Shown here: positions 6,308-64,000 of the stretch, piece by piece
Layout: each line of letters begins with the position of its first letter
Position numbering within the stretch: position 1 is the first letter of the stretch
DNA from: an uncultured Alphaproteobacteria bacterium
GTDB taxonomy: Bacteria; Pseudomonadota; Alphaproteobacteria; Rs-D84
Direction of reading: 5' to 3'
Assembly: GCA_937903135.1 (NCBI GenBank)
Contig: CALDAH010000024.1
Span: 18,471-82,470, forward strand
DNA: 64,000 nucleotides
The notes under the pieces: model-generated
Seen by the model: the letters and a program-made list of their open reading frames with translations, nothing else
The model's database searches: none
Told to the model about the DNA's origin: nothing
Position numbers and translations under genes: made by a program

Positions 6308-6403
6308 ATACGGTTAAACGTAACTATACTACGCAAAAAAAATTTGTAATTCAACATAAAAATTGTAATATATAGTATATTGTAGAGTATGAGAGAGATT
6401 TTT

Positions 6404-8906: not shown

Positions 8907-8917
8907 TGGGGGAATAT

Positions 8918-9640: not shown

Positions 9641-9660
9641 ACATAAAACAGTGTAAAAAA

Positions 9661-10878
9661 ATGACATTTAACGATATTTTAAAAGAATCTTGGCTGTCGA
9701 TCAGCGGTAATAAAATTCGTTCGTTTTTAACCGTTCTCGGGATTGTTATCGGTGTTATGGCGGTGGTTATAATGGTTGCAGTCGGTGAAACGGTTCAGCG
9801 TCAGATTACCGATCAGTTTTCATCACTCGGGACAAATACGATAATGATTCGTGCCGGCGCGGCCCAGAGTGCAGGCGTTCGCACCGGGAATCGTCAAACA
9901 TTAACGATTGACGATGCCGAATTTATCGGCAAGCTGCCCGATGTTATGGCCGTAACCCCGGTTCAGAATAGCGGCGCCCAGGCGATATATGGTAATAAAA
10001 ACTGGGCAACGTCCATGGTCGGCGCATATCCCGATTATACGATTGTTCAAAACATAGAAATGCAAAGCGGTACGTTCTTTGACACATCGGCGGTTCGTAA
10101 TGCATCCACATACGCCGTAATTGGCCCGACAACGGCCCAGGAACTCGGGCTGCCCGAAAACCCCGTCGGCGAGGTAATTCGCGTCCAGAATACGCCGTTC
10201 GTAATTATCGGCGTAACCAAGGCCAAAGGTGACTCTGCCATGGGCAGCCAGGATGATATGATAATTATCCCGATTACAACGCTTAAAAAACGCCTCCAGG
10301 GGAGCCGTTTCCCGAACTCGGTTAGTATGATCGCATTAAAGCTATACGAGGACGCAGATAATACCCTGGCGATTGAAATGATAACCGCCCTATTACGGAA
10401 TCGGCATAAGCTAAAAGAAAACGCGGTTGATGATTTCCAGATAATGGATATGAAACAGGTTATGGAAACAATGAATACTGTAACGGGCTATCTAAAGCTT
10501 TTATTAATCGCGATTGCGGCTGTATCGTTGCTGGTCGGTGCAATCGGTATTATGAATATGATGCTGGTATCCGTTGCCGAACGAACGCGCGAAATCGGTA
10601 TCCGCAAAGCGATCGGCGCACGCGAACGGCAGATAATTATCCAGTTTTTATCAGAATCTATTTTAATATCATTTATCGGATCAATGGCCGGGCTTTTACT
10701 AGGGGTCGGGCTGTCCCAGGGGATCGGGCGATTGGTTTTGGGATATAACGTTCCGTTTAGTATATGGCCCGTTTTATTGTCGGTATCCGTTGCGGTTATC
10801 GTAGGACTGGCATCCGGGGTTGTCCCCGCGCTAAAGGCGGCAAAGCTAAACCCGATTGACAGCCTGCGCTATGAATAA
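9661..10878 (+). CDS. MacB-type ABC transporter permease (FtsX-like domain plus periplasmic MacB domain).
   Basis: N-terminal TM, a large periplasmic domain and a C-terminal FtsX 3-TM bundle. The permease is encoded separately from the ATPase. Confidence 0.8.
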   Translation: MTFNDILKESWLSISGNKIRSFLTVLGIVIGVMAVVIMVAVGETVQRQITDQFSSLGTNTIMIRAGAAQSAGVRTGNRQTLTIDDAEFIGKLPDVMAVTPVQNSGAQAIYGNKNWATSMVGAYPDYTIVQNIEMQSGTFFDTSAVRNASTYAVIGPTTAQELGLPENPVGEVIRVQNTPFVIIGVTKAKGDSAMGSQDDMIIIPITTLKKRLQGSRFPNSVSMIALKLYEDADNTLAIEMITALLRNRHKLKENAVDDFQIMDMKQVMETMNTVTGYLKLLLIAIAAVSLLVGAIGIMNMMLVSVAERTREIGIRKAIGARERQIIIQFLSESILISFIGSMAGLLLGVGLSQGIGRLVLGYNVPFSIWPVLLSVSVAVIVGLASGVVPALKAAKLNPIDSLRYE

Positions 10879-31210: not shown

Positions 31211-31242
31211 AAAAAAAAACACCGGATGCCGGTGTTTTTTTT
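31211..31242. terminator. Bidirectional terminator of the acaccggatgccggtgt family.
   Basis: Palindrome flanked by A9 and T8 runs, between convergent genes. Confidence 0.7.
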
Positions 31243-32299
31243 ATGGCGTATAATAACAATAATCCCATTCGCCGGACGGGGATCGGAATTCATATGTCCC
31301 GGTTTCATCACTGCCGCGATATGCATAGCACGACGTTAGATCATCGTATACATAATCCGTCCATTTGCAATCGCTGCTGATGCCCTTGCCGTATGCTTCC
31401 GGGTCGCCGTTGCAGCTTTGCAGTGTGTCTGTATAGTAAACATTTTGGGCCATTCCCGCGCCGGGGCATTTAACACATGACGGGTATGTTGCATCGTCGC
31501 CGGGATAGTATATAAACGACCCCGCCGGACAGAATATCTGTTCCCCGTTACACTTTGCCCCCGCCGGACACGATATGCATTTTGTTCCATCAACGTCAGA
31601 GAAGTATTGACCTAAATCATATTGGCCGGATGTGCAGATTTCGCTATCGCCGCCGTCGGGGGATTTGCAGGCGCTGGCCTGGGGCAGGGAATGATATCCG
31701 GCGACGCCGCTGGCCGCACCATTTGGGCACGAGAGGCATTTGCCGTTATTTAGATAATATCCCGAAATGCAATACGGCCCGCTGGTATTATTCAGGCTGT
31801 ATCTGCATGTCCCACTGCGTTCGCCGGTAAAATATAATTTAACATTCCCGCGCGTATAAGTACCGGTCGCCGCGTTATATGAATACACCCCCGTTTGCGG
31901 ATAGCTGCTGCTTAAACAAAATCCATTATAATCGCCAGTATATGGCGGGCTGCAAAAGTCAATATCGGATGTATCGGTATCTTCGCTGGTTCGCACGCGG
32001 GTATTTGCGGGGATTTCAATAACCTCTGCGTTGCTGCATTCAGATGCACTGCTGCATGAATTTTGCGCACCGGCGCATTGAAAGCATCCAACCGTTGCCC
32101 CGTTCTGATTATCATATACCGATACGCAGCCGGTGTTATTATAAACCGTGCCGATTGAATAACGCCCGGCAGAGTTATAAATAACATATTCTTCGGCGTT
32201 CCCGATGCTCTCGGTTGAATAATTCGGCATATCATAACGCGCATTCGCCGGATTGGATATGCAAAATAGTGTAAAAAAACCAACCTTTTGATTCGGCAA
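31241..32299 (-). CDS. Cysteine-rich secreted protein with CxxCPxG-type repeats. The start is TTG if the full ORF is used.
   Basis: The putative signal peptide is MPNQKVGFFTLFCISNPANA. About 40 Cys occur in 352 aa, arranged in recurring motifs such as CLSCPNGAASG, CISCPAGAKC, CVKCPGAGMA and FCPAGSF. No SD was recognised. Confidence 0.45.
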   Translation of the reverse strand: MPNQKVGFFTLFCISNPANARYDMPNYSTESIGNAEEYVIYNSAGRYSIGTVYNNTGCVSVYDNQNGATVGCFQCAGAQNSCSSASECSNAEVIEIPANTRVRTSEDTDTSDIDFCSPPYTGDYNGFCLSSSYPQTGVYSYNAATGTYTRGNVKLYFTGERSGTCRYSLNNTSGPYCISGYYLNNGKCLSCPNGAASGVAGYHSLPQASACKSPDGGDSEICTSGQYDLGQYFSDVDGTKCISCPAGAKCNGEQIFCPAGSFIYYPGDDATYPSCVKCPGAGMAQNVYYTDTLQSCNGDPEAYGKGISSDCKWTDYVYDDLTSCYAYRGSDETGTYEFRSPSGEWDYCYYTP

Positions 32300-32429: not shown

Positions 32430-33551
32430 TTATTCAATTGTTTTTTTATTGTTCCCCCGGGCGTTATTTAATCGCAGCTGGCCGCATGCAGATCCGATAT
32501 CTGTTCCGCGTTCACGGCGAATACGTGTATGAATTCCGTTGCGGATTAAAATATCTTGAAAACGATGCACAGCATTACCCGACGGGGATGCAAAATCACG
32601 TTCATCAACCGCGTTCCACGGGATTAAATTTACCATACAGTTTTTCCCACGCAGCAGATCGGATAATTTTTCCGCATATTCGGCCGTTGCGTTATATAGA
32701 ACTGTATCGCCGTTTTCGTCCTTTTTCCCTAATAAAATATATTCAATCATTAACTGACGGTGATGCAGGTCGGTAAACGCATCTGCGGCCGTTAAAACAT
32801 CGGATAGTTTATATTTATTATTAATCGGCATTATCTGCCCGCGCAGATCGTCCGTCGGTGCATGCAACGATATCGCCAGGTTAATTGGCCGACCCCATTT
32901 AATCAGATCATAAATACCCGGGACAATCCCACACGTAGATAATGTAATTCGTCGCCAACCGATTCCCATATCGCGATTTGCCCGTTCAATAAATCCGATA
33001 ACATTTTCTGTATTCATCAGCGGTTCGCCCGTCCCCATTATAACGATATGCGACACATCACCGTTATTCGGGTCGCCATTGGGGCGAATAGGGCGGTCGG
33101 CGGCGCGATCGGTGCGCAGTTGCCATTGGGCGACCAGGATCTGGGAAAATATTTCATTCGCAGTCAGATTGCGTTTCAGCCCCAGCAAAGTACTGGCACA
33201 GAAACGGCATCCCATCGCACATCCCGCCTGAGAGCTGACGCAGACGCTGTTGCCGTATGTTGTGCGCATTAATACGCATTCTATTTGCTCGCCATCATTT
33301 AATTGCAACAAAAACTTAGTGGTTTCGCCATCGGCCGAGTCCAGTTTTTGTATGATTTCAACAGGCAGTGTTCGTGCGGTGTTGTTTAAATCACGTCGCA
33401 GGGACTCGGGCAGATTTTTCATAACACTGAAATCAGGTGCGCCGCGGTTTAACCATTCACGAATTTGTCGTGCGCGAAATCGCGGTTGACCCATGTCGGC
33501 GACAAACTGATCCAGCTCTGCGTCGGTTAAGTTAAATAATATAGGTTTCAT
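32430..33551 (-). CDS. rlmN: 23S rRNA/tRNA adenine-C2 methyltransferase RlmN (radical SAM).
   Basis: CxxxCxxC cluster GCAMGCRFCAS, with the conserved RlmN N- and C-terminal Cys residues. Confidence 0.9.
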   Translation of the reverse strand: MKPILFNLTDAELDQFVADMGQPRFRARQIREWLNRGAPDFSVMKNLPESLRRDLNNTARTLPVEIIQKLDSADGETTKFLLQLNDGEQIECVLMRTTYGNSVCVSSQAGCAMGCRFCASTLLGLKRNLTANEIFSQILVAQWQLRTDRAADRPIRPNGDPNNGDVSHIVIMGTGEPLMNTENVIGFIERANRDMGIGWRRITLSTCGIVPGIYDLIKWGRPINLAISLHAPTDDLRGQIMPINNKYKLSDVLTAADAFTDLHHRQLMIEYILLGKKDENGDTVLYNATAEYAEKLSDLLRGKNCMVNLIPWNAVDERDFASPSGNAVHRFQDILIRNGIHTRIRRERGTDIGSACGQLRLNNARGNNKKTIE

Positions 33552-34366
33552 AGTTTATATCTATCGTCGTTAATTACAACCACGGCTTTGCGACGCAGTT
33601 GTTTTAGTTGTTGGTCGGCCATAAACATTGCCTGTTTATACATCGCGTTTTGCCGAATTATATCATCCAGTTTTCCGTATTCGGATGTTTTTTTTGTGCT
33701 GCATACCAGTAACACAGAATCATCTATGCGCGGTGACCATGTTAACAGCGGCATCCCGACGACGCGTTTGCGAATATCCGCCGACAGTTCATATTGCACG
33801 GCGGTAAATTTTTGTGGGACGCCGCCTAAGTCTTCGGCCATTTTCATCGCCGCGTCACAGTTTTTCGGACGGGATAATTTCGCCGCACTATCCGCGGGGA
33901 TATCAACCAGGCGAATAATTGTCATTTCAATCGGCAGGCCGTGTTCACGTGCCAGTGCGTTTTTTTCGGCGGCTATATCTTCCTTGGATACATCAACTGT
34001 CGGCAGAATTGTTCGGGCAACAACAATCTGCCATGCGATATCAGATTTCATCGCCGCGCGGGCCATCGCCATTTCAGATGCCGATAAATCACCAAGATTT
34101 AATTTCTTTATCTCTTTTTCAACATCGTCGTCGGACGGGACGGCTTTGAAGTTTTCTGCATAGCTAAGCTTTATATGATCATCAATAATATTTTGCAGTG
34201 CCACGCGACGATTATCGGTTGACGTTTTCCCCTGGCGCGACATTAGTTTAGTGCGCGTCGTAACGTCAGTATCTGTAATCGGGACGCCGCCAATCGTTGC
34301 AACAACACTGGCCGCGTGTGCATACGGGGCGACCAAAATTAAAAATAACAGACTGATTTTTTTCAT
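33548..34366 (-). CDS. surA: SurA-like periplasmic chaperone, lacking recognisable parvulin PPIase domains.
   Basis: Signal peptide MKKISLLFLILVAPYAHA, a SurA N-terminal-like domain and a C-terminal tail. It lies immediately downstream of lptD, as surA does in E. coli. It is 272 aa against about 430 aa for canonical SurA. Confidence 0.5.
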   Translation of the reverse strand: MKKISLLFLILVAPYAHAASVVATIGGVPITDTDVTTRTKLMSRQGKTSTDNRRVALQNIIDDHIKLSYAENFKAVPSDDDVEKEIKKLNLGDLSASEMAMARAAMKSDIAWQIVVARTILPTVDVSKEDIAAEKNALAREHGLPIEMTIIRLVDIPADSAAKLSRPKNCDAAMKMAEDLGGVPQKFTAVQYELSADIRKRVVGMPLLTWSPRIDDSVLLVCSTKKTSEYGKLDDIIRQNAMYKQAMFMADQQLKQLRRKAVVVINDDRYKL

Positions 34367-46407: not shown

Positions 46408-47100
46408 TTATCGGACCGGGGCGATGCGAATCTCTACGCGGCGATTGGTTAATCGGCCGATATCATCCTGGGCGGCAATTGGGCGTGCCGCCCCGCGCCC
46501 GACAATAAACAATCGTTCGGGGATAATCCCGTGCTGGGCAAAATATACCCCAACCCGTTGTGCCATATCAAATGACAATGCACGTGCCGCATTATTGTCG
46601 CGCGTTGCATCGGTATAGCCTGCGATTTCAATAAACGTTGCATCGTATTTTTTCAAAATTTTTGTAATTATGGACAATGTATCCGACCCAGTGGCCGATA
46701 TATCCGCCACGTTTAATTCCATAATTGCATCGCGAACAAGTATTACCACAACCTCGGTCCCGGCGCGCTGAACAGATATGCCGGGTTTGCGCAGCGCATC
46801 ATATAGGGCGTATTCCAGAGACGACATATAGCCGAGCAACGCCATGTTGTCATTCGTGGTTTTATCACCGTATTCCGCCCGTGCCCCGGCGTTATTATTA
46901 ATATCGCTGTTCGCGACGGTGCGTCCCCCCGCGCCAAGCAGTACCTGGCGCTTGGCAATACGGGATGTTTCGGTCATATCCGTTACGCTTGCGCCGCGCA
47001 GGATTTGACCCCACGTCGCCCGATCGGGGCTGTGATATTGCATGCATCCGGCGATGCAGAGAACGGATATAAATAAAAAAGATATTTTAAATTTATTCAT
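46408..47100 (-). CDS. OmpA/MotB-family peptidoglycan-binding lipoprotein.
   Basis: Lipobox LCIAGC and a C-terminal OmpA-like domain (AGYTD…N..L…RA..V…RRVEI). Its ATG directly abuts the stop codon of the upstream pilin-like gene. Confidence 0.7.
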   Translation of the reverse strand: MNKFKISFLFISVLCIAGCMQYHSPDRATWGQILRGASVTDMTETSRIAKRQVLLGAGGRTVANSDINNNAGARAEYGDKTTNDNMALLGYMSSLEYALYDALRKPGISVQRAGTEVVVILVRDAIMELNVADISATGSDTLSIITKILKKYDATFIEIAGYTDATRDNNAARALSFDMAQRVGVYFAQHGIIPERLFIVGRGAARPIAAQDDIGRLTNRRVEIRIAPVR

Positions 47101-47559
47101 TTATTCCGCGATGAATGAAATTTGATTTGTTTGTGATGAAAAACAATGCGACCCCGGATCGGTTTCATATCCGTTAACTAATACCGCGCTGGCCCATTTT
47201 GGAATCGCCGTGGTAAAATAATCACATTCACCTTCGCTGAGGTTAGTTAGGTTAATAGAAAACGTTTTACCATCCGCGCCGGCCGATACGGACCAATTAT
47301 TATCGCCAATCGGTGCATTGGCGTTTTTAAGTGCCCCGGCCTTAATCAAATAATCCACAGAGAGGCCCGAGTACGTACCGCGCACCTGCATTAGCAGTCG
47401 TACGTTTTTCGCAATGCTGTCTATTTCCGATGTTGCAATCGCACGTATCTGGTTTTGACGTATTGCGCGATATATTCCGATCGTACTTACGGTCATAACA
47501 CCGGCAATTGCCATAACGCCAATAATTTCAATCAAAGAACGTCCTGATTCTGCCTTCAT
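47101..47559 (-). CDS. Prepilin-type N-terminal domain protein (type IV pilin or pseudopilin-like).
   Basis: The N-terminus MKAES-G-RSLIE-IIGVMAIAGVMTVSTIGIY fits the class III signal, with Gly at -1, Glu at +5 and about 20 hydrophobic residues. A strong SD (gcaagaggaaacataATG) lies upstream. Length is 152 aa. Confidence 0.55.
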   Translation of the reverse strand: MKAESGRSLIEIIGVMAIAGVMTVSTIGIYRAIRQNQIRAIATSEIDSIAKNVRLLMQVRGTYSGLSVDYLIKAGALKNANAPIGDNNWSVSAGADGKTFSINLTNLSEGECDYFTTAIPKWASAVLVNGYETDPGSHCFSSQTNQISFIAE

Positions 47560-49220: not shown

Positions 49221-49511
49221 TTACAGGTTTGTAATAAAATCAGGGAATGCAGCGTCATCTTCTTCGGTCGTGTCGTTTGTTTCTGCGGGCTCGGCCGGTG
49301 CTTTTTCTTTTGGATCACGGCTGGAATCAATTTTTCCCTGCTCGGCACTGACGATACGCCCGTAGTGTTCGGCGGCCTGCATTAAACGTTCGCGTTCAAT
49401 TTCGTCTGCTGTTTGACGCGCTTGGTCCATGTATTGTTTTCTTTTCTGACGCCATTTATGACAGCGCTGAATCATCATCCCGACCGAGGATTGGTTTTTT
49501 TTGTTTTGCAT
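49221..49511 (-). CDS. Small conserved alphaproteobacterial protein, DUF4167-like.
   Basis: Basic N-terminus plus a Q.AEHY motif (MQAAEHYGRIV), with an acidic C-terminus. Confidence 0.4.
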   Translation of the reverse strand: MQNKKNQSSVGMMIQRCHKWRQKRKQYMDQARQTADEIERERLMQAAEHYGRIVSAEQGKIDSSRDPKEKAPAEPAETNDTTEEDDAAFPDFITNL

Positions 49512-49660
49512 TTTTATTCTTTTTAACAGGAAATATTATCCAATAATTTTATGACAATAATTTGTCACACCTCGCCTTATAAGCAATATGGATAATATAG
49601 TATCTTAAAACTGATTGCAATATTTTTTTTCTATTGCTATTCTAAAAATACGTAGGAGGG

Positions 49661-51022
49661 ATGATTTTGCAATCGCAACGTGGTAATTTTTTACTTCAGG
49701 CATTATTAGCACTTGCGTGCATATTTGCATTCATTCCGTTTTTTGCAAACACTATTGCCGCGCGCGACACTAACGAACGAATGTTCGCCGCAACCGGTCA
49801 AATTGAACAGGCCCAGGCCGCCGCGCGAATTTTCATACGTGAAAACGCAAACGCGCTGCCATATGATAAAACGGTTATCGCCGGTAATCAATTCGCCGAT
49901 ACGCTTGAAGCGTACGGACTGCCGCTGGGGTTTGTACCGCGAACGGCACTGGGACAGGATATTGCATTGGTTATAAATAAAACCGCGACAGATATAACGG
50001 CGCATCTGGAAGTTACGGGCGGTGATCTATCGGCGATTGCCCGGGCAGAGCTAATACGCCGTATCGGTTTTTACGCCACGCCGTTCGGGGATGCAATACG
50101 CGTCGGAATTGCGCTGGAAAATATTTATTCAGATGTTGTTCGCCGAAATGAACCCGATACGGATAATAACGGTTTTTTAACTAATCTGGATATGGGGGGA
50201 AATACATTTAATAACGCCGGCACGGCGATTGCACGCCAAGGGGATTTCGCCACGGGGGAATTTAAAACACTTTCCATCATCGGGTTTGAAAACGGGCGCA
50301 GGGTTCGCAATTCAATTGCTGCGATTTCCGCGAATAAGGCGGTGTTTCAAACCAAATCAGGCGAGGCGGCATTATCCATTACCCGCGGGGTTTTATCGGC
50401 GGATGAAATAAATGCAAAAACAATTGCTAAGTTCGGGGACACGGGGAATTTTACATCAAATTCCGCATCGGTTTATGATTTTGCAATGACGGCGGGGCGG
50501 ACGGGTTTTTCCGGCCCGGATAAATGGAACGTTCGCGGAAACCTTGTATCGGATCGGGTTACGTTTAGTGTTGAACGACTGGACGTGGATTCATTTGTAA
50601 ACGCGTCCCGCGGCCAGGATGTTTATATTACCCCGGATGATTTGGAATATAATTCGCGCAGTGGAATTGACGCCGGGGTTTTAATCGCATCAAATATAAC
50701 GCTGCGCGATCAAACGTCCGCTGCATTGGCGAACGGCGAAAGCGGTGCTGTGGTGGTTGATATTCGCCCGGCCGGGACGTCTGTGCTGCCGGATGTTTTG
50801 CTGGAAACAATTGATAATAACGCGTTTAGTATAATTGCCCGGCCGGGGGCGAACGATGATAAGATGCAGAATTGTCGTACGATAATATCTGATCTGAATG
50901 CATCATATAACCAGCGTTCGCTGGCGCAATATATTATTTGCCAGTATGTATATTGGCAGCGACTGGAAAAAAGAATTGATATAAAGGAATGTTTGTTATC
51001 AGGCAGGGGGGGCTGTGTATAA
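49661..51022 (+). CDS. Large pseudopilin-like protein 1 (prepilin-type N-terminus, Gln at +5).
   Basis: The N-terminus is …QR-G-NFLLQ-ALLALACIFAFIPFF. An SD (aggaggg) abuts the ATG, and a TTG at 49667 is an alternative start. The gene overlaps the next gene by 8 nt. Confidence 0.45.
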   Translation: MILQSQRGNFLLQALLALACIFAFIPFFANTIAARDTNERMFAATGQIEQAQAAARIFIRENANALPYDKTVIAGNQFADTLEAYGLPLGFVPRTALGQDIALVINKTATDITAHLEVTGGDLSAIARAELIRRIGFYATPFGDAIRVGIALENIYSDVVRRNEPDTDNNGFLTNLDMGGNTFNNAGTAIARQGDFATGEFKTLSIIGFENGRRVRNSIAAISANKAVFQTKSGEAALSITRGVLSADEINAKTIAKFGDTGNFTSNSASVYDFAMTAGRTGFSGPDKWNVRGNLVSDRVTFSVERLDVDSFVNASRGQDVYITPDDLEYNSRSGIDAGVLIASNITLRDQTSAALANGESGAVVVDIRPAGTSVLPDVLLETIDNNAFSIIARPGANDDKMQNCRTIISDLNASYNQRSLAQYIICQYVYWQRLEKRIDIKECLLSGRGGCV

Positions 51023-52217
51023 ACGGAATGGGATTTTTTCGGATCTATCGCGTGGCGCCAGTGTAACAGAGGTTTTACTGGCCATGGCAATTGTTACCAT
51101 GGCGGCCCCGTTTGTTTATAACCAGATCGCCCAGACCAACCGGGATATTCGCGATATATCCATGGCACGTGATATAATCGCACTGCGTGATCCGGCGTTG
51201 AATTTTATTCGCATAAACCAAGACTCGTGGCCCGATGCCGCGCAGATACAATTATCAGACGATGAATTGGATCAGATATCAGATACAGCATTTGCGGGAT
51301 TTATTGATAAATATTCTGTTAAGGGCGCAGGTATTACGGATGTTTATTTGGCGTTTAATACACATGATTCACAGTTGCATGCGAACCGCATCGCGCGTCA
51401 GATTGGTGATAGCGCGGCCGTGGTTGACGCATCCGGCGTTGCATATGGCAATACATGGGCGATATCCGCACCGGATTTAAAGCCCGGGGATTTAATATAT
51501 CGCATATCACGTGATTTTTCCGGGAACGATAAAACCAAATACCTGCATCGTGCAACGTCCGGGGATGATAATTTAAATGTTATGCAGCGTGATTTACATA
51601 TGGGCGGGTTTAATGCGTATAATATCGGGACTGCGTCGGCGGAATCTGCGCGGATTAATTCGGCCGTTGCGATGTTTGTCACATCGGACGATGTGTCGGC
51701 CGAAAATATATATTTTTCATCGGGCGCAAATATGGACGGTGGAAACGCTGCAATTGGAACTATGCGCGTATCGGGTGATATAACGGGATTTCGGAATATA
51801 TACGCGGATAATCTAAACGGCGGGGGATATACCACGGCCGGGCGTATTATTGCCGATCGCGCACGGGTAAATAATTCTGTAAACGTTGCCGGGGATTTTG
51901 TTTTAAAATCAGATTCTGCGCGAACGATCAGTGCGTTTACCGGGATTCGGGCAAATTCTGTTTATACAACATCAATAACCGCATCCGAGATGGTGTTCTA
52001 CGGTAACGTCGGGCTGACGGTATCGGGCGAGCTGTTAATGTCAACAACCCCTGCGTTAAAGATCGGCGGTTGGTCATTCCCATCGCTGACGCCGCCACGG
52101 TTTGATGAACTGTCGCTGTCGCGCGCGGCAATCCCGGCAACGCCGGTCGCGGATGAATTTGCGCCGCTAATGTCGTCCGGATGGCAGGATATTCCCCCAA
52201 TAACAGAGGTACAATGA
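51015..52217 (+). CDS. Large pseudopilin-like protein 2 (GTG start).
   Basis: The N-terminus is …SR-G-ASVTE-VLLAMAIVTMAAPFVY. A GGGGGG SD lies upstream. The gene overlaps the next gene by 4 nt (ATGA). Confidence 0.45.
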   Translation: MYKRNGIFSDLSRGASVTEVLLAMAIVTMAAPFVYNQIAQTNRDIRDISMARDIIALRDPALNFIRINQDSWPDAAQIQLSDDELDQISDTAFAGFIDKYSVKGAGITDVYLAFNTHDSQLHANRIARQIGDSAAVVDASGVAYGNTWAISAPDLKPGDLIYRISRDFSGNDKTKYLHRATSGDDNLNVMQRDLHMGGFNAYNIGTASAESARINSAVAMFVTSDDVSAENIYFSSGANMDGGNAAIGTMRVSGDITGFRNIYADNLNGGGYTTAGRIIADRARVNNSVNVAGDFVLKSDSARTISAFTGIRANSVYTTSITASEMVFYGNVGLTVSGELLMSTTPALKIGGWSFPSLTPPRFDELSLSRAAIPATPVADEFAPLMSSGWQDIPPITEVQ

Positions 52218-53527
52218 AAACGCAAAATCGGATCTTTAACAACGAAGCGCGCGGCAGCATGCTGGTTGAATTACTGCTAAGTGTTGCGCTGGCGGTATTG
52301 ATTATTCCGTTTATATTTCGCTATCAGCATGATGCGGCCCGGCGCGCTGAAAATATTGCAATCGTTAATCAGATGGAAACAGTTCAGGCCGCATTAGAAC
52401 GATATATTATTGATAACCGCGTGGAATTATTAAAAACCGTTGGCAAAAATATTACGCGCGTTGAAATCACAGATTTAATTAACTATGGCGTTCCGGAAAG
52501 TATTGTTGATAAATTCGGGGCCGACTATCAGCTGCGTGTATTAAAAACAAATGATATAAATAATCAGTCCACGCTTCAGGGGGTCGTTGTTTTATCATCG
52601 CGCGATATCACACCGGTTCGTACGCGTGAAATTGTTGGAATCGGCGGCACTTCTATGGGGTTTGTTGATGGTAATCATGCGTATGGATCATTCGGGGCAT
52701 GGCATACGGATTTAATTGATCTCGGGATCGCGGGCGACGGCGGTGTTATTCAGACCACGCCCGTTCAGCGTGATAATGCGCTTTATCTATGGCGCGTCCC
52801 GTCGGATAACGACAGCGATGCGACAATGATGACGTCATTAAACCTTGGTGGGCATGATATTACAGGGGCGAAGTATTTTGATATCGCCACCGCCCGATTT
52901 GACGAGGTTATTAATTCATCAATTATTGCGGCCGGGGATATTATTTTTCAAAACCGCACGACCATAGATAAAACATTTATTGCAAACTCTGCGGCGGTTG
53001 CCGGTACATTATCTGCGGATTCGCGTAATATGGAAATCACAGGTGCATTAAAGCTGGCGGATGTTGGAAAATTTTCAAACTTTACAACGAATGATTTATG
53101 GGTAACGAACTTAAATCTATCGGGGTTAACGGTATCCGGGGATGAATACGGTGCGGTTATGATAAACATAAATCGTTCGCTGGATATGAACGCCGGTCGT
53201 ATTGATGCGATGTTTGCAACGGTCGGTTTTACAGGATCTATTACGCCGCGATTGGTCGTCCGCGAAAGAATAGAAGATTCAACAAACCCTGAATATTTTT
53301 GGGATACAGAATATCGTGTTGCGAACTTTATGGATCTGACCTCGCGAGAGCTTAATCGCATGGCGACATTAATCGTGGCGCGGGAAAAGGGTGGCAATAC
53401 TGCCGCGGGCAAAGCATTCGCAGCGGTTGCCGCGAACAAGAACGCAACAGTCGCGGATTTTATGAACGTAATTACAGATATTCAGAATAAAGTCCGCGCA
53501 AAATATCGCCTGTTGAATTTAGAATAA
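52214..53527 (+). CDS. Large pseudopilin-like protein 3.
   Basis: The N-terminus is MKTQNRIFNNEA-R-G-SMLVE-LLLSVALAVLIIPFIF. An SD (agagg) lies upstream. The 'N/R-IF' segment before the RG is shared with protein 2. Confidence 0.5.
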   Translation: MKTQNRIFNNEARGSMLVELLLSVALAVLIIPFIFRYQHDAARRAENIAIVNQMETVQAALERYIIDNRVELLKTVGKNITRVEITDLINYGVPESIVDKFGADYQLRVLKTNDINNQSTLQGVVVLSSRDITPVRTREIVGIGGTSMGFVDGNHAYGSFGAWHTDLIDLGIAGDGGVIQTTPVQRDNALYLWRVPSDNDSDATMMTSLNLGGHDITGAKYFDIATARFDEVINSSIIAAGDIIFQNRTTIDKTFIANSAAVAGTLSADSRNMEITGALKLADVGKFSNFTTNDLWVTNLNLSGLTVSGDEYGAVMININRSLDMNAGRIDAMFATVGFTGSITPRLVVRERIEDSTNPEYFWDTEYRVANFMDLTSRELNRMATLIVAREKGGNTAAGKAFAAVAANKNATVADFMNVITDIQNKVRAKYRLLNLE

Positions 53528-53547
53528 TTTATGGTATAAATCCAATT

Positions 53548-54054
53548 ATGAAAGTAACGTGTGAATTTTGTAAAACAGAATATTCCCTGCCGCGCGCGCC
53601 GGCATCTGCGGTAAAGTGTGCAATATGTGGTCGCGTATGGTCGGTTGCAAATGCCCCGCGGCGCAGTGCGACATTGATGTTTATCGCGGCCGTATGCGCA
53701 TTACTCGCGGCGGTTGTGTTTACGGTTACCATAATCGGACGTCATAAAATAAACGATGTTCAAAATCGTCCGCTGGTCGCGTCTATATCCGATATAAAAA
53801 CTGTTGTGGATGCAGATGGCGTTCCCCATTTTGTCGTAAGTGGAAACGTTATAAACCGTTCTGATGAAATATACGGCGTGCCGGATTTAATTATTGTATC
53901 GCGTGATGCCGACGGGAATCCGATTACGCGTCAGAAGTTTATGCCATCGGCAACGCTGCTGGATGCCGGGGCGCATGCATCGTTTTCGCATACACTGTCG
54001 TCACCGGCGGCCGGGGTTAAAAAAATTACAGTTGAACTGGGGGGCGATGAATGA
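53548..54054 (+). CDS. MJ0042-type zinc-ribbon membrane protein (DUF3426-like architecture).
   Basis: The N-terminal motif is CEFC…x15…CAIC, followed by a TM (LMFIAAVCALLAAVVFTVTII) and a periplasmic domain of about 100 aa. Confidence 0.5.
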   Translation: MKVTCEFCKTEYSLPRAPASAVKCAICGRVWSVANAPRRSATLMFIAAVCALLAAVVFTVTIIGRHKINDVQNRPLVASISDIKTVVDADGVPHFVVSGNVINRSDEIYGVPDLIIVSRDADGNPITRQKFMPSATLLDAGAHASFSHTLSSPAAGVKKITVELGGDE

Positions 54055-54515
54055 AGTGGTTATTGACACTGTTCATAATAATGCTAAGCGCTGTGGCAAA
54101 CGCCGCGGATGAAAAACCGGTTGTACGCCGGGTTAGTATTTTTTCAACCAGCACCGACTGGGAAGCGATAACGGGTCTATCGCTGTCCGAGTTTCGTGGA
54201 AAGTTTATATCAGATTCTAAACTGGTCGGGAACAAGGGGCTGGTATTGTATTATTTAGATGGATTCCCCTGCTATGGCCTTGGCGAAGGGGTTCGCGTAT
54301 GGATTGACCCGCGTGGGCGTGCGGATAATGACCTGCGGATTGTATGTTTGCGCCCGCCGCAGCAGATAAATTTTGCATGGCGAAATATGACGCGCGACGC
54401 GGATCAGGGTGTAACAACGGGGATTTTAACATGCCCTGTATCGGCATCGGGTCGTGATTTAACGATTGAGTTATCAAAGTGTAAAAAAGGCCCGGATTGG
54501 CCAGATTATGAATAG
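54051..54515 (+). CDS. Small secreted hypothetical protein.
   Basis: Signal peptide MKWLLTLFIIMLSAVANA, with 4 Cys. It overlaps the end of the previous gene by 4 nt. Confidence 0.4.
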   Translation: MKWLLTLFIIMLSAVANAADEKPVVRRVSIFSTSTDWEAITGLSLSEFRGKFISDSKLVGNKGLVLYYLDGFPCYGLGEGVRVWIDPRGRADNDLRIVCLRPPQQINFAWRNMTRDADQGVTTGILTCPVSASGRDLTIELSKCKKGPDWPDYE

Positions 54516-55477: not shown

Positions 55478-55556
55478 AATACGACAAAACCATTATTTTT
55501 GTTTGTCAGAATATCTTTTTATGATATAATGAAACAATAAATCATGGAGTGAGTCA

Positions 55557-58500
55557 ATGTTTGTCCTGAAAAAAACTATCAGTTTTATCGCTGTTTTCAG
55601 CGTATTACCGGCGGCATTCGCGGTTACGGCACGCCCGAGTATTGTAATGAAGGCGTCACCACGTATGCCGACAATGACGGCAAATATAAACAATAATAAT
55701 ACAACCACGTCCGGGACAACGGTTAATTCATCAACCCTATTGGCGAACGCCGAATGCATAGAGGCGTATACTTCATGTATGAAATCAGCGGATGCATGTG
55801 GCCCGAATTTTGAAGAATGCACAAACAAGGTATTATTCCACGGAAAAATGCCCCAGTGTTTAAGTACACTTGCCCAGTGTTCAGCGGCCGGTGTAACCAG
55901 CCTTTACGGGACAAGTAATACTGCCGCATTATCCACGGTCGCATCAACCAACAGCTATGGCGAGGTTACAAACTACACATACCCGACCGACGGCAGTGTT
56001 TTAGGGCAGTTAATCACCGGTGCGGCGATAACTAACCGTTATGATACGTCAACCTGCGTTCGTCGTTATACATCGTGTTTAAAGAAAGACACCGTATGCG
56101 GTAATGATTTTGAATTATGCACAACAAACGCAGAATTTAAAAAACAACGCGTATTTTGCGATTCAACCCTTGCACGCTGCCAGGGCGAAGGGATAACAGA
56201 ATTATTCGGATCAGCCTCTCTAACGGCGGCCCCGAGTGCGAGCAGTCGCGTCGGTGAAATGATCGCCGAAGGTGCGGCACTGGCGGCCGTTAATGCCGTT
56301 TCAACGTGTTATAAGGTAATTGATAACTGCATCCTGGGGGCATGTGCGGCGAACCCGTATAAGTGTTATGAAAACACCCCGGTTGTAAATGCCGAATTGG
56401 CCGATGCAATAAACAGCGGCGATGATAAAAATCCGGATATAAACAATACCGATACGACCACGGCGTCGTCGGTCGCGGCATATATCCGCAATTCGTGCAA
56501 GGATACAATCGGCGCAAATAAATACTGCTATGCGACATTTATCGGTAACGGTAATATGCCAACCGCATCCCAGCTGCGCGACGAAGATAACCAAGACGAA
56601 ATTTATTCCGAAGCCTACAGCGCACGTATGGGCGACGGGATGAAGGCACAGATAACAGAGCTGGTAAATAAATTTGATACCAAGGCTAAAAATAAATGTA
56701 TTGATACAATTAAATCCTGTGCGATGCGCGTTTGCGGCAGTGGCAGTGGCGCGGCATGCTATTCCCAGGTATTCGGATCAACGTCTAAATCCATTAACGC
56801 CGGGAATAATTATAATGAAATTAAAACCGGATGCGCGGCGATTGTAAATACGGACGCGAATTGCAAATATGCAGCTAAAAATACAACTGGCGTTGGCACG
56901 TATTCATATGCATTTATTAACACAGATGCATTTGATACGCTGTTCCCGGAATACGACACCAACAGCACAGACAATGACCCGATCGGCGTAATTGCGTCGC
57001 TGAACGCGTCATTGGCAAACAGCTACAGCGATGCGGCGATTGCGCAGATGAAAAAGCAGTGTCAGTCGGTTGCCAGCAGCTGTGTTAAATCAATGTGCGG
57101 GGCAGATTATCAAAACTGCTATCGTAACCGTACGGATGTATATTCGTCATTAACAGATACAGGTGATACACGTTTTGATAAATCCATGAACAAGGTAGGC
57201 GGCGTACTTGACTACACTATCGTTCTGGGGCTGTGCGTTGATACAGTTAAAAACGCATCTGTATGCGAAGAACATTTGGCAATTGAACAACAAAAATTAA
57301 AAATGAACAATTCAAATGCCGCCACCAGCTGGGGTGATGCAAATAACGTCCGCGGCGGCTGGATTGATGCCGGCTCAACATCCAAGATGGAATTTGCAGC
57401 CGAGAGTGTTCAGGCCGTTGATGAAAACGGTAATAACCTCTGCACGGTCAAAGGTGGCACGGAACAGGGCGTATGCTATACCGTTGACGCCAACGGCAAG
57501 GTATATGATACCCCGGCGATGATTTCGTATTCTACGTATGTTGAATCCCAGGCGGCAAATACGTTGTTTAAAGATTTAATATACGACCTAGAGATCGAAG
57601 CCCAGGCAAAATATAACGCGAAACTAACCAAAGAACAGAATATGTGCATGGCCAATAATGATGGTGGCCTGATGGGGAATCGTGATGCCGGCAGCACATT
57701 TATGTGGGTAAAACTGCGTTCTGCGAAAGTCCCGGCGAACTATGCGACGGCCGGACTTACCCCGAAACAGTTCGTGGCCAGCAATGATTTATACGGTTCA
57801 TTCTGTCGCGTTCGTGTTACATTGCAATCCGACGATCGTCGTATCCAGGATGTAATTAACAAAGGCGCAGACTGGGCAACCGCGTATTTCGCAACAGGTG
57901 ACGTATTTACCTGCGGCAGCTGGATACCGGCCGAAGCATTAGAAGAAATTGCAAAAGACGTTGCAAAAGATGCAACCGAGGATCAGGCCGCGGCACAGAA
58001 ACGTACCCGGACATGGCTGACCATATTAGGTGGACTGGGCGGTACAACGGGCGGCGCGTTCTTAGGTGAATCTATCCGCACCGGGAATACACTGGGTGGC
58101 CTAACGGGGCTAGGTGACGGGAATAAGGCGGATAAGAGCTCTAAAACCGATGCTAAAATGTGCCTTAATAACCTGGAATATGCCGCAGATGATCTAAATG
58201 ATGATAGTCTGTCAAATGCTGCGTACTCTATTGACACGGCCATAAGCTATGCTAAAAAGGCAAAGGTTTCGGATTCTGCGCTGACCGTTGCATCAAATGC
58301 CGCCAGCAATTTAAGAAAGGTTGTTGATGAATCCAGCGTTAGCGCCGAAAACAAAACAGTTGATAAAACCACTGCAATCAGAGAGGCCGAAACCGCGATT
58401 CGCAATCTGGAAACACTATGCGAACGCGTTGACGATGAAAAAAGCGATAAAGATAATAGTGGCAAGGGTTGGATTACAGGCGTTTCAACCGTCGCAATGG

Positions 58501-58682
58501 GTACGGCAGGTGCATTGTTGATTAACAAGGCCACCCGTGACATCCAGCAAACAAATCTGGATAAGGCACAAAGAGAGGCCTATGATGAATGGATGAATGC
58601 GATCGGGCGTCATATCAACTGCTATATCGGCGCAGAAGAAGCCGGACAGTATGGTGATATCGTATCAACGTCGCTGGAATAA
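55557..58682 (+). CDS. Giant cysteine-rich secreted or surface protein (1041 aa) with an internally duplicated Cys module.
   Basis: The signal peptide MFVLKKTISFIAVFSVLPAAFAVTA follows an SD (ggagtgag). An Asn/Thr-rich stretch comes next. Two modules of about 95 aa are clearly repeated (…CIEAYTSCMKSADACGPNFEECTNK…C…C and …CVRRYTSCLKKDTVCGNDFELCTTN…C…C). Further Cys-pair motifs follow. The C-terminal region has Gly-rich hydrophobic stretches (LTILGGLGGTTGGAFLG and GVSTVAMGTAGALLI). Confidence 0.55.
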   Translation: MFVLKKTISFIAVFSVLPAAFAVTARPSIVMKASPRMPTMTANINNNNTTTSGTTVNSSTLLANAECIEAYTSCMKSADACGPNFEECTNKVLFHGKMPQCLSTLAQCSAAGVTSLYGTSNTAALSTVASTNSYGEVTNYTYPTDGSVLGQLITGAAITNRYDTSTCVRRYTSCLKKDTVCGNDFELCTTNAEFKKQRVFCDSTLARCQGEGITELFGSASLTAAPSASSRVGEMIAEGAALAAVNAVSTCYKVIDNCILGACAANPYKCYENTPVVNAELADAINSGDDKNPDINNTDTTTASSVAAYIRNSCKDTIGANKYCYATFIGNGNMPTASQLRDEDNQDEIYSEAYSARMGDGMKAQITELVNKFDTKAKNKCIDTIKSCAMRVCGSGSGAACYSQVFGSTSKSINAGNNYNEIKTGCAAIVNTDANCKYAAKNTTGVGTYSYAFINTDAFDTLFPEYDTNSTDNDPIGVIASLNASLANSYSDAAIAQMKKQCQSVASSCVKSMCGADYQNCYRNRTDVYSSLTDTGDTRFDKSMNKVGGVLDYTIVLGLCVDTVKNASVCEEHLAIEQQKLKMNNSNAATSWGDANNVRGGWIDAGSTSKMEFAAESVQAVDENGNNLCTVKGGTEQGVCYTVDANGKVYDTPAMISYSTYVESQAANTLFKDLIYDLEIEAQAKYNAKLTKEQNMCMANNDGGLMGNRDAGSTFMWVKLRSAKVPANYATAGLTPKQFVASNDLYGSFCRVRVTLQSDDRRIQDVINKGADWATAYFATGDVFTCGSWIPAEALEEIAKDVAKDATEDQAAAQKRTRTWLTILGGLGGTTGGAFLGESIRTGNTLGGLTGLGDGNKADKSSKTDAKMCLNNLEYAADDLNDDSLSNAAYSIDTAISYAKKAKVSDSALTVASNAASNLRKVVDESSVSAENKTVDKTTAIREAETAIRNLETLCERVDDEKSDKDNSGKGWITGVSTVAMGTAGALLINKATRDIQQTNLDKAQREAYDEWMNAIGRHINCYIGAEEAGQYGDIVSTSLE

Positions 58683-59332: not shown

Positions 59333-59356
59333 AAAATCCCCGGGCGGGGATTTTTT
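59333..59356. terminator. Terminator (aaaatccccgggcggggatttttt) at the 3' end of the minus-strand secreted-protein gene.
   Basis: Perfect GC stem with flanking A- and T-runs. Confidence 0.6.
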
Positions 59357-60647
59357 ATGGACACATCTCCAATTGATTTAAAACATTTTGAACGTCGTTA
59401 TTAACCGATACCGTTATCTCGCGCTGCAGGCCATCGGTGTATGTATAATAAAACTTTTGGCGGGCAAATTCCGGCATCTGTTTATATACCTCGGCAAACG
59501 GGGCCAGCATTGCGCTGAACCATTGGCGTCCGCGGCACAGACATCCGTTTCGTACGTCCGCCGCAACTGCCGCCGTCGCGGTATTCGGGTATTTCGTATC
59601 AAAGTCTTTGTCCGTCATCATTAAACAGCGCGCCCCTAGGCCGTAAAAATTAGCATCATCGGCCAAGAATTTATATACCAGGCCATCGGATGCCCCCGCC
59701 TGGCGCAGGGAATATGCCATCCCGTCTGTACAGCATGCGTTTGCCGACCCCATTAGCATTTTATAGCGCTGCAGCAACGGCGCGGCCGCCGGATGTGATG
59801 CGCTAATCTCAGGGTTGCAGCGGGCGGCGTTGATAAATTCCGCCATATTTATATCACGGATTTTCGGGCTTCGCGGCGATACGGTTTCGCGAATTATTGG
59901 TTTTCTGCGCCATATCTCGCATTCGGTCTCGGCCTCAAACGGGCAGCCATCGGCGCGGCCGAATGTCTGCTCTACTATCACCGTCATATCCTGGGCGGTA
60001 TATTCCGGGCGCGGCGCAGGAACGGCGACAGCCTCTGGGGCGGGGGGCGTTTCTGTGACCGAAACGTTTTCGGCCCAGATATTCCCGGATGGCCGTTTAG
60101 GGCTCAGCAGCTCTTCTACGCGGGCACGCGTCGCCGCCGCATCCGCCATATTTTGGTTATATAGCTCGGTTATATTTATATCTTCGGTCATTACCGCCGG
60201 TGCGATCGGCCGAGTGTCTGCCTCGCGCAGGTAAATCTCGGGCAGTGGCTCTAAGAACCAGTCGCTAAAATCCTTGGACTTATAATTTACAATAGAATCG
60301 TCCCAGATCGGAACGCCATCGCGCCAGTCCACCGTTTTATCCGCCGCGCGTGCGGTATATTTACCCGTCGTGCCATCCCATAATGGCGCACGAGTATCCG
60401 CCGGGACCGGCTTTATAGATAATGTTTTTACCGAACGCATTGGAATCTGCGTTGCATATATATATTCCGTCGGACCGGCATATGACGGTACGGCCGCCAT
60501 CGGGGCGGGTAATACTGCCGGCTCTTGAATCTGGTCTATATATAAAGGTTCAATATAACATCCCGCGCCAGTGCATTCGGACGCCATGGCCGGAATTGCC
60601 CCACATAAACATATCAGGGACGAAAAAGTTACAATTTTCATTTTCAT
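59355..60647 (-). CDS. Secreted hypothetical protein.
   Basis: The ORF extends to 60875, but the signal-peptide-like MKMKIVTFSSLICLCGAIPAMASE begins at 60647. The protein is Pro/Ala-rich with 10 or more Cys, and no family was recognised. The start is uncertain. Confidence 0.4.
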   Translation of the reverse strand: MKMKIVTFSSLICLCGAIPAMASECTGAGCYIEPLYIDQIQEPAVLPAPMAAVPSYAGPTEYIYATQIPMRSVKTLSIKPVPADTRAPLWDGTTGKYTARAADKTVDWRDGVPIWDDSIVNYKSKDFSDWFLEPLPEIYLREADTRPIAPAVMTEDINITELYNQNMADAAATRARVEELLSPKRPSGNIWAENVSVTETPPAPEAVAVPAPRPEYTAQDMTVIVEQTFGRADGCPFEAETECEIWRRKPIIRETVSPRSPKIRDINMAEFINAARCNPEISASHPAAAPLLQRYKMLMGSANACCTDGMAYSLRQAGASDGLVYKFLADDANFYGLGARCLMMTDKDFDTKYPNTATAAVAADVRNGCLCRGRQWFSAMLAPFAEVYKQMPEFARQKFYYTYTDGLQREITVSVNNDVQNVLNQLEMCP

Positions 60648-60960
60648 AATACGAATCATATCATAAAAAGCAGTGCTTTGAAAATATAAAATTTGATCTG
60701 GCGGCATTATTAGTAAGGTTTTTTCGGTATATATCGGTATATATAAAACGAATCGTTGCCGATTCTGTCGTATTTTTACAATAAATTTATAAAAATGAAT
60801 CGGTTTTTTGCATAAAACCGAATCGTAAAAGGGGTAAAAAAACAAAAAAATCAAAAAAATAAAAAAATTTTTCAATAGGATAAAATGGCGGAAATCCGGC
60901 GTTTTTCCTATGTTTTTATGGCCGGGGATAAATTTTTTTAAAATTATTTTTCAAAAAGCG

Positions 60961-61353: not shown

Positions 61354-62855
<1,502 letters not shown>

Positions 62856-62938
62856 ATAGAGAATACCGTTTACACGAAAACGGTCAAATCCAAAGCGACT
62901 GTCTGAATATCTCTTTTTGAAATGTGCATAGTTTTGCT

Positions 62939-63015
62939 GGGTCAGTAGTTCAGTTGGTTAGAATGCCGCTCTGATACAGCGGAGGTCGAAGATTCGAGTT
63001 CTTCCTGACCCACCA
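62939..63015 (+). tRNA. tRNA-Ile (anticodon GAT) in the 16S-23S spacer.
   Basis: Cloverleaf with acceptor gggtcag/ctgaccc, anticodon loop CUGAUAC, T-loop TTCGAGT, and an encoded CCA. Confidence 0.9.
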
Positions 63016-63319
63016 TATTTGATGAGGTTGGAATCAAAAACATATGTGTGTTTTTGATTCCAGATATTCTGATGGATATCTTCGGGATCTGCTTTTATAG
63101 CAATATATTGTTAATCGGTTTTTATGTCGCAAGTTAAAATTTTATAGAAATATGACTTTTTAATTTGTTGAACATCGTAATCTCAAAAAATCTTTCTAAA
63201 TAGAGTAATCACGAAAGTGATAATTCAATTAGAGAAGCAAGAATCAACTTAAATGCTTAAAAAACTCATTAAGTTCTTTTACTGTGTTTGAAGACTTTCT
63301 CTTCAAGCATAAGATAAAA

Positions 63320-64000
<681 letters not shown>

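Follow-up and report, generated by a model that had tools for sequence, protein, structure and literature searches.

Three tandem PilV-like proteins encoded near a PilS-like pilin in gut alphaproteobacteria of the order Rs-D84

The locus described here lies within a 64,000-nucleotide stretch of DNA (the window) that covers positions 18,471 to 82,470 of contig CALDAH010000024.1 from an uncultured gut alphaproteobacterium with a reduced genome, Candidatus Enterousia, of the order Rs-D84. The window is chromosomal and carries dnaX, nusA, infB, ftsK, mutS, mreB, lptD/F, lpxD, skp, and an rRNA operon. It contains a block of five genes on the forward strand, the first three of which encode the proteins P1, P2, and P3. 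Sequence comparisons identify P1–P3 as paralogous, very divergent chromosomal members of the PilV family, that is, as remote homologues of the tip adhesin of the R64/IncI thin pilus. A small pilin is encoded 2 kb upstream of the block on the opposite strand. The six genes, with protein lengths in amino acids (aa), are the following.

49661-51022, + strand: P1, PilV-like minor pilin paralogue, 453 aa, ATG start
51015-52217, + strand: P2, PilV-like minor pilin paralogue, 400 aa, GTG start
52214-53527, + strand: P3, PilV-like minor pilin paralogue, 437 aa counted from the ATG at the P2 stop codon (ATGA)
53548-54054, + strand: ZitP-type bitopic zinc-ribbon protein, 168 aa, CxxC-x15-CxxC motif and one transmembrane segment
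54051-54515, + strand: signal-peptide protein, 154 aa, cleavable signal peptide, no family assigned
47101-47559, - strand: PilS-like type IV pilin, candidate major pilin, 152 aa, Pfam PilS_N

The P1 and P2 genes overlap by 8 nucleotides (nt), P2 and P3 by 4 nt, and the zinc-ribbon gene and the gene of the 154-aa protein also by 4 nt. The gene rluD starts just 8 nt past the end of the block. A preliminary description of this DNA, made from the sequence alone, had reported three coupled open reading frames (ORFs) of 453, 400, and 437 aa with overlaps of 8 and 4 nt, followed on the 3' side by genes for a zinc-ribbon/transmembrane protein and a signal-peptide protein, and the ORF coordinates agree with it in both respects. 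Its inventory of pilin-type proteins was correct for the three N-termini of the triplet, but it overlooked the 152-aa pilin.

When one genome was scanned for each GTDB species, 149 loci were confirmed, and 80 of them were kept for conservation counts. The kept loci come from gut and rumen metagenome-assembled genomes (MAGs), many of which are named Candidatus Enterousia. Enterousia belongs to the order Rs-D84 and has genomes of 0.75–1.0 Mb that encode no flagella and no respiratory chain and have an incomplete glycolysis; a partner-dependent lifestyle is suspected (PMC12306168). The genes of the locus and of its surroundings were found in the kept loci with the following frequencies.

P1: 77 of 80 loci
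P2: 80 of 80 loci
P3: 80 of 80 loci
Zinc-ribbon gene: 80 of 80 loci
154-aa gene: 80 of 80 loci
152-aa pilin-like gene: 71 of 80 loci
dnaX: 71 of 80 loci
ompA-like gene: 71 of 80 loci

The median identity among the 80 loci is 57–61 % for P1–P3, compared to 76–78 % for RluD and DnaX. P3 has 1013 relatives in a large protein collection, which come from MAGs and for which the names given are all 'hypothetical protein [Alphaproteobacteria bacterium]'.

Each of the proteins P1–P3 begins with a short basic leader that ends in glycine and is followed by a hydrophobic α1N segment with a proline at about position +18. With a slash at the predicted cleavage site, the N-terminus of P1 is MILQSQRG/NFLLQ, with Gln at +5, whereas those of P2 (...SRG/ASVTE) and P3 (...ARG/SMLVE) have Glu at +5; all three had been quoted exactly in the preliminary description. 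A regular expression for G-x4-[EQ] with 13 or more hydrophobic residues behind it was applied to all six-frame ORFs of the window. Four of its five matches fall on the N-termini of P1–P3 and of the 152-aa pilin, and the remaining one is a spurious internal site. In an alignment of 82 sequences of the superfamily, Gly(-1) never varies, and Glu(+5) and Pro(+18) each reach a conservation of 90 % or more. The orthologues of P3 follow the pattern ...(R/Q)G(S/G)ML(V/I)E... with an invariant Glu, and the leader (K/R)IF....RG is conserved in both P2 and P3. Orthologues of P1 have Gly(-1) and Gln(+5) in 72 of 75 cases, and the remaining three are register shifts. Prepilin-type N-termini of the triplet are conserved in at least 80 species. 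The class-III-signal-like N-termini recognised in the preliminary description are thus genuine, since the G(-1)/E(+5) pattern is kept in both the superfamily alignment and the orthologue columns. The same columns answer its proposal to follow the RG-x4-E motif among orthologues, where the motif is conserved, and the lack of Glu+5 in the first protein, which it had likened to GspK, is a conserved trait.

The role of Glu5 in type IV filaments is to neutralise the N-terminal amine of the adjacent subunit; subunits without Glu5, such as GspK and PilX, cap the fibre. Because Gly(-1) and Glu+5 are near-invariant in more than 80 divergent sequences, processing and α1-mediated assembly of the proteins are probably still under selection.

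Scans of P1–P3 against Pfam and NCBIfam gave nothing above noise, and the similarity between the paralogues is weak in BLASTP (26 % identity of P1 to P3 over 317 aa, E 8e-5). A profile of 22 orthologues of P3 was searched against 1.84 billion (1.84e9) representative proteins. Only 313 of them were matched with E ≤ 1e-3; the family is rare. Its members have the first ~230 residues in common, differ in total length from 370 to 1236 aa, and all start with G-x4-E followed by a hydrophobic stretch. A hidden Markov model (HMM) of the first 300 residues of 84 relatives matches P2 at E 2e-36 and P1 at E 2e-21, and therefore P1, P2, and P3 are paralogues.

PilV is the minor pilin and tip adhesin of the type IVb thin pilus of R64, ColIb-P9, and TP114 (IncI1, IncI2, and IncK plasmids), and it is also encoded in the Salmonella Typhi pathogenicity island SPI-7 and the Pseudomonas aeruginosa island PAPI-1. 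The weakest significant matches of the P3 profile, P0253, P0249, P0229, and P0223 (E 7e-9 to 1e-11), are recognised by the Pfam family Shufflon_N (PF04917) with E-values of 3.8e-74, 1.9e-73, 2.3e-45, and 3.1e-25, respectively. The NCBI name of P0253 is 'shufflon system plasmid conjugative transfer pilus tip adhesin PilV [Salmonella enterica]'. The hhalign comparison of the P3 orthologues with an alignment of seven PilV sequences gave a probability of 99.3 % (E 9e-21, 225 columns), in which residues 11–238 of P3 are aligned to residues 11–247 of PilV. In local hhalign comparisons, PilV was matched by P1 with 95.9 % (E 6e-9, 192 columns), P2 with 98.0 % (E 1.7e-13, 204 columns), and P3 with 99.4 % (E 3.8e-21). 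The link was also found from the plasmid side: a phmmer search with the single PilV sequence of the IncK2/Z plasmid pDV10 matched orthologues of P3 and P2, with a best E-value of 1.4e-11 within the local set and about 1e-6 for the P2 orthologues. The two families share an internal signature, which reads SDRLYR..VPGRPDLN.MHTAIDMGGN.INNAG in PilV and ALYLWRVPS.N..DATMM..LNLGGHDI.NA in P3. The consensus of this signature of the pilin-like head, the constant region of PilV, is LYR..P....M.T.(I/L)(D/N)(M/L)GG(N/H).I.

The preliminary description had considered the three proteins to be far larger than known minor pilins and had assigned them to an undescribed apparatus. The first statement does not stand, because PilV proteins of IncI plasmids are 415–470 aa long, and the second is contradicted by the homology of all three proteins to PilV in the profile search and hhalign comparisons.

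P1–P3 resemble PilV in size (400–453 aa compared to 415–470 aa), in Gly(-1), Glu+5, and the proline at about +18, in the approximately 225 homologous residues that follow the leader, and in the location of the genes near a gene for a PilS-type pilin. In contrast, the identity to PilV is only 20–25 %, and the Pfam model misses P1–P3. The first paralogue has Gln where PilV has Glu5, and the C-terminal domains differ. PilV is encoded by one gene whose C-termini are switched by a shufflon, whereas P1–P3 are three fixed tandem paralogues without sfx repeats and without the recombinase Rci. A shufflon was considered for the locus and rejected: the repeats found are short, at chance level, and not sfx-like, and there is no recombinase ORF in or beside the operon. 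Furthermore, P1–P3 are chromosomal, vertically inherited, present in Alphaproteobacteria, and not adjacent to pilI-U biogenesis genes.

The family includes a group of long relatives from other MAGs (P0207, P0216, P0219, P0232, and P0255, for example L004 10001-13702), which are 900–1236 aa long and PilV-like in the first ~230 residues. They share a strongly conserved C-terminal block, VNPAYTSVMHDIKLTTRGGARLSDILPDFINKGIY, that has no Pfam match, and there are no pilus genes within ±10 kb of them.

The structure of P3 was predicted using AlphaFold. An alignment of 22 close orthologues resulted in a predicted local distance difference test (pLDDT) score of 41 and was replaced by one of 82 diverse sequences, for which the score was 85.5. 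The model contains a helix of residues 12–67 that begins directly after the predicted cleavage site, an α/β domain of pLDDT above 90 that reaches approximately residue 185, a β-rich region of residues 223 to 371, and a three-helix C-terminus of residues 378 to 433. According to the model, P3 consists of a long α1 helix, a domain resembling type IVb pilins, a β-helix, and a bundle of helices at the C-terminus. The fold prediction suggested in the preliminary description thus returned the α1 helix and a pilin-like domain, but a Foldseek search of the model against the PDB found nothing at E ≤ 1. A sequence search of the PDB identified only the PilA-N helix of Geobacter, with E of about 0.07, and no close solved structure.

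The 152-aa protein has the N-terminus MKAESG/RSLIE, with Glu at +5 and Arg at +1. It passes the Pfam family PilS (PF08805, PilS_N) with 23.8 bits against a gathering score of 22 (E 4.8e-5), and its E-value for the Pfam N_methyl family (PF07963) is 0.16. PilS is the major pilin of the type IVb pili of R64 and S. Typhi. The comparison of the 152-aa protein to plasmid PilS by hhalign gave a probability of 52 % (E 1.5e-4, 105 columns), and phmmer with PilS matches orthologues of the 152-aa protein with E-values of up to 3.6e-5. Some sources label the orthologues 'type II secretion system protein' or 'PilE'. Gly(-1) and Glu+5 are present in 66 of 71 orthologues, and Cys112 and Cys139 are 100 % conserved and correspond to a D-region-type disulfide. 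In P1, the C-terminal residues Cys405, Cys427, Cys444, and Cys452 are also 100 % conserved among orthologues. The invariant cysteines of P1 and the 152-aa pilin fit disulfide-bonded, extracytoplasmic proteins. Because the PilS-like pilin is encoded near P1–P3, the locus appears to provide both kinds of subunits of the R64-type thin pilus, with the PilV component in triplicate.

The gene of the pilin is followed, with zero gap, by that of an OmpA-family lipoprotein.

46408-47100, - strand: OmpA-family lipoprotein gene, OmpA domain with E 8.8e-12

The best NCBIfam matches of the lipoprotein are all below cut-offs. The order pilin-OmpA-Skp is kept in 71 of the 80 loci and in two deeper Rs-D84 relatives, L094 and L095, and the lipoprotein gene is possibly co-expressed with that of the pilin.

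Four further loci, including these two relatives, carry a tandem triplet with subunits of the following lengths.

L092, mouse- or animal-gut MAG: 444, 461, and 487 aa
L093, MAG labelled Rickettsiales: 443, about 435, and 483 aa
L094, deeper Rs-D84 relative: 531, 455, and 653 aa
L095, deeper Rs-D84 relative: 457, 395, and 438 aa

In all four, the first gene encodes Gln at +5 and the second and third genes Glu at +5. With identities between lineages of about 20 %, the preservation of the [Gln5, Glu5, Glu5] order represents a conserved design rather than drift.

The 168-aa protein encoded downstream of P3 matches Zn_ribbon_4 (2.6e-5) and DUF3426 (0.012), both below the gathering thresholds. Among 18 of its orthologues, Zn_ribbon_4 was found in 17, DUF3426 at E ≤ 0.01 in nine (best 2.7e-6), and Zn_ribbon_5 in one. 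The protein appears to have the three-part layout of ZitP from Caulobacter crescentus, with an N-terminal zinc ribbon, one transmembrane segment, and a periplasmic DUF3426-like domain; the likeness is at the level of architecture only. In Caulobacter, ZitP is a polarity factor, and its DUF3426 domain is required for the biogenesis of the Tad pilus (PMC5182063). The two proteins differ in length (168 aa compared to 311 aa for ZitP), in the spacing of the cysteine pairs (CxxC-x15-CxxC compared to CxxC-x19-CxxC), and in that the 168-aa family favours Zn_ribbon_4 over Zn_ribbon_5, with DUF3426 sub-threshold in the protein from the window. A sequence search of the PDB with the zinc-ribbon protein gave no match to the ZitP structure. 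The 154-aa secreted protein has no Pfam or NCBIfam match and no likeness to R64-type Pil proteins in hhalign. Both proteins were considered as counterparts of R64 Pil proteins (PilI, PilL, PilM, PilO2, PilP, and the rest of the plasmid pil operon), and the hhalign probabilities were at most 2 %.

Assembly genes were sought by Pfam searches of 38 ORFs of the window and by phmmer searches in which all 14 proteins of the pDV10 pil operon were compared with the six-frame ORFs from the window and from 97 loci. The pDV10 proteins matched only PilS-like and PilV-like ORFs, apart from one marginal, evidently spurious match of PilL (E 0.003); PilM, N, O2, P, Q, R, T, and U had no match in the window or the loci. 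There is no pilI–pilU biogenesis operon, which includes the secretin PilN, ATPase PilQ, platform protein PilR, and peptidase PilU, around P1–P3 in the window or the loci. Neighbourhoods of distant family members and the 10 kb upstream of the window contain housekeeping genes only.

The homology to PilV and PilS, the conserved residues of processing and assembly, the modelled fold of P3, and the gene order establish that the locus encodes relatives of the subunits of a known pilus. We consider it probable that P1–P3 together make up the PilV-like tip of an adhesive, type IVb-like pilus, as a heterotrimeric complex; the pilus would be a divergent chromosomal version of the known pilus kit. The persistence of the whole block in 71–80 of the 80 species, despite genomes of only 0.75–1.0 Mb, speaks for this model. 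The view of the preliminary description that the triplet is a minor-pilin or tip module is most likely right, given the N-termini, the fold of P3, and the homology to PilV. The following account of how the subunits are cleaved, assembled into a filament, arranged in the tip, and bound to a target is a proposal. A prepilin peptidase encoded elsewhere in the genome would cleave P1–P3 after the glycine. The three proteins would then associate through contacts of their α1 helices and form a heterotrimer that acts as tip or priming complex, with P1 probably at the apex, because it does not need Glu5 to neutralise a subunit above it. The 152-aa PilS-like pilin would polymerise below the tip complex. 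The β-helix domains would act as fixed adhesins, replacing the shufflon-switched C-termini of plasmid PilV, and might bind surface glycans on host or partner cells in the gut. The ZitP-type zinc-ribbon/DUF3426 protein may contribute to the positioning or construction of the envelope machine, in the way that ZitP serves the Tad pilus of Caulobacter.

The heterotrimeric tip is suggested by the presence of three different PilV-like subunits, one of them of the cap type. The tip position of a type IVb minor pilin has a precedent in CofB (PMC9045228), and the reference list of the same paper includes a report of a homotrimeric CofB structure. However, CofB of the CFA/III pilus of enterotoxigenic Escherichia coli and TcpB of the toxin-coregulated pilus (TCP) of Vibrio cholerae, both type IVb, have no detectable sequence similarity to P1–P3. 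CofB is a homotrimer of one gene product, whereas there are three different paralogues here, and the cof and tcp operons include their own assembly genes, unlike the P1–P3 locus. Tandem sets of minor pilins or pseudopilins in which one member lacks Glu5 and serves as a cap are known from the type II secretion system (T2SS; GspK-GspI-GspJ, with GspK as the cap) and type IVa pili (PilV/W/X-FimU, with PilX), but those subunits are much smaller (100–330 aa) and belong to families unrelated to P1–P3.

Several observations weigh against the tip-complex model. P1–P3 have no match at E ≤ 1 to Shufflon_N or to N_methyl (PF07963) in Pfam, their residue +1 is Asn, Ala, or Ser instead of the usual Phe or Met, and the structural model covers P3 alone of the triplet. 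The link of the 152-aa protein to plasmid PilS is weak in hhalign. As the preliminary description had stated, there is no assembly ATPase, platform protein, secretin, or A24 prepilin peptidase in the 64-kb window according to both Pfam and phmmer, and no assembly gene is present either in the approximately 10 kb that precede the window or, in 90 related genomes, in the 10 kb on each side of the locus. The type IV pilus genes mentioned in the published survey of Rs-D84 genomes all belong to another lineage (PMC12306168), which is indirect evidence and may reflect an annotation centred on type IVa pili. The survey also hints at a possible lack of the canonical genes. It is a rather doubtful proposition that Enterousia and the other triplet-bearing reduced alphaproteobacteria have no canonical type IV filament assembly genes, and that the subunits are exported and assembled otherwise or work unassembled.

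It is possible, though unlikely, that P1–P3 are pilin-derived proteins that do not form a filament and are anchored in the inner membrane by an uncleaved helix, so that their β-helices are periplasmic and build a scaffold of the envelope or cell pole together with the ZitP-like protein. The surroundings of the locus agree with this explanation, as its neighbours are envelope and housekeeping genes (lpxD, skp, ompA-like, dnaX, and rluD) and no assembly genes are near it in any lineage examined; so do the role of ZitP in polarity (PMC5182063) and the survey, which does not list type IV pili for Rs-D84 (PMC12306168). However, the near-invariant Gly(-1), Glu+5, and Pro+18 in more than 80 sequences and the leader (K/R)IF....RG are hard to explain for a plain anchor, and a small pilin with a D-region-type disulfide is conserved beside the block. 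In a functional variant of the tip-complex model, the thin pilus would be accessory to a chromosomal type IV secretion system (T4SS) and, as in IncI plasmids, would steady the contact through which DNA or effectors are transferred to a partner or host cell. PilV and PilS are known from the conjugation-associated thin pilus that stabilises mating pairs (PMC9045228), and a partner-dependent lifestyle has been proposed for Rs-D84. A VirD4/TraG-type T4SS coupling protein (24557-26812, + strand; T4SS-DNA_transf 5e-56) is encoded among housekeeping genes 25 kb upstream of the block and is near the block in L095; it may matter, because plasmid PilS/PilV pili work with a T4SS. Nevertheless, no linkage tighter than 25 kb was seen, nor any relaxase, oriT, or other tra genes, there is no shufflon or Rci recombinase, and the locus lies on the chromosome, is inherited vertically, and keeps its synteny across the order. 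We therefore regard this variant as having a low probability.

The parallel of a triplet whose first member lacks Glu5 with GspK-I-J also allows P1–P3 to be read as GspK/I/J and the 152-aa protein as GspG of a short periplasmic piston, that is, a T2SS-like pseudopilus tip. The NCBIfam model TIGR01707 (gspI) has a weak match to the N-terminal helix of P2 (E 0.058, 13.9 bits compared to a cut-off of 44.35), and some sources label the orthologues 'type II secretion system protein' or 'PulG'. However, the homology is to type IVb PilV and PilS, not to GspH-K, and there is no match to the Pfam families T2SSK, T2SSI, and T2SSJ. Subunits of 400–650 aa with β-helix adhesin-like domains are not pseudopilin-like, and no gsp genes were seen in the window or the loci, which makes the explanation quite improbable. 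The least probable reading, to which we give very little credence, is that of the preliminary description, namely that the triplet is a tip or minor-pilin module and belongs to a class of pili not yet described, with minor pilins larger than any known. It agrees with the lack of a direct Pfam or NCBIfam family for P1–P3 and with the 313 representatives found among 1.84e9 proteins, but the homology to PilV is clear though remote, and includes the size, N-terminal features, and internal signature motif.

The region upstream of P1 contains a divergent gene and an AT-rich intergenic segment.

49221-49511, - strand: DUF4167-like basic protein, 96 aa, DUF4167 match sub-threshold
49512-49660: AT-rich intergenic segment that separates the divergent DUF4167-like gene (-) and P1 (+); the ribosome-binding site of P1, AGGAGG, is at 49654-49659

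The DUF4167-like gene is kept in 75 of the 80 loci with 73 % identity. Scans for promoters and terminators gave no excess over the shuffled expectation. The site most like a promoter (55503-55530, 11 of 12 matches) is located just upstream of a gene that directly follows rluD (55557-58682, + strand). This gene encodes a cysteine-rich protein of 1041 aa without a Pfam match, which has a signal-like segment at its N-terminus and a Gly-rich hydrophobic stretch (LTILGGLGGTTGGAFLG) at its C-terminus. The protein is kept in 69 of the 80 loci and has deeper relatives in L094 (1239 aa) and L095 (978 aa); it may be another surface protein of the same neighbourhood. The end of the window is occupied by an rRNA operon (61354-64000) with the 16S rRNA gene at 61354-62855, tRNA-Ile at 62939-63015, and the 23S rRNA gene from 63315; no tRNA-Ala was found in the 16S-23S spacer. 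Related contigs end about 7–10 kb past the P3 gene, roughly where the rRNA operon lies. Elsewhere in the window, a four-gene efflux operon of TolC-like, HlyD-like, and MacB-type ABC components is located at 6389-10878 (+ strand), and three ORFs on the - strand (59355-60875, 31241-32299, and 33548-34366; 506, 352, and 272 aa, respectively) have no Pfam family at E ≤ 1e-3.

The findings extend the PilV family from conjugative plasmids of Enterobacteria to chromosomes of Alphaproteobacteria. The PilV-like family, including the relatives of 900–1236 aa, is absent from the coverage of Pfam and NCBIfam. New in the locus are the fixed [Gln5, Glu5, Glu5] triplet, the fact that this triplet is strictly conserved along with a PilS-like pilin and a ZitP-like protein in genome-reduced gut alphaproteobacteria, and the lack of linked assembly genes. 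Three fixed paralogues, one of them without Glu5, represent an alternative to the shufflon and point to a heterotrimeric tip for type IVb-like pili. If the canonical assembly genes were lacking, the PilS/PilV-like set could be the organelle by which a proteobacterium with a partner-dependent, Patescibacteria-like lifestyle attaches. Animal and human guts harbour Rs-D84/Enterousia bacteria in abundance; these bacteria are uncultured and suspected to depend on partner cells. The pilin and three large adhesin-like minor pilins, which are kept in every species examined, are a strong candidate for their attachment apparatus.

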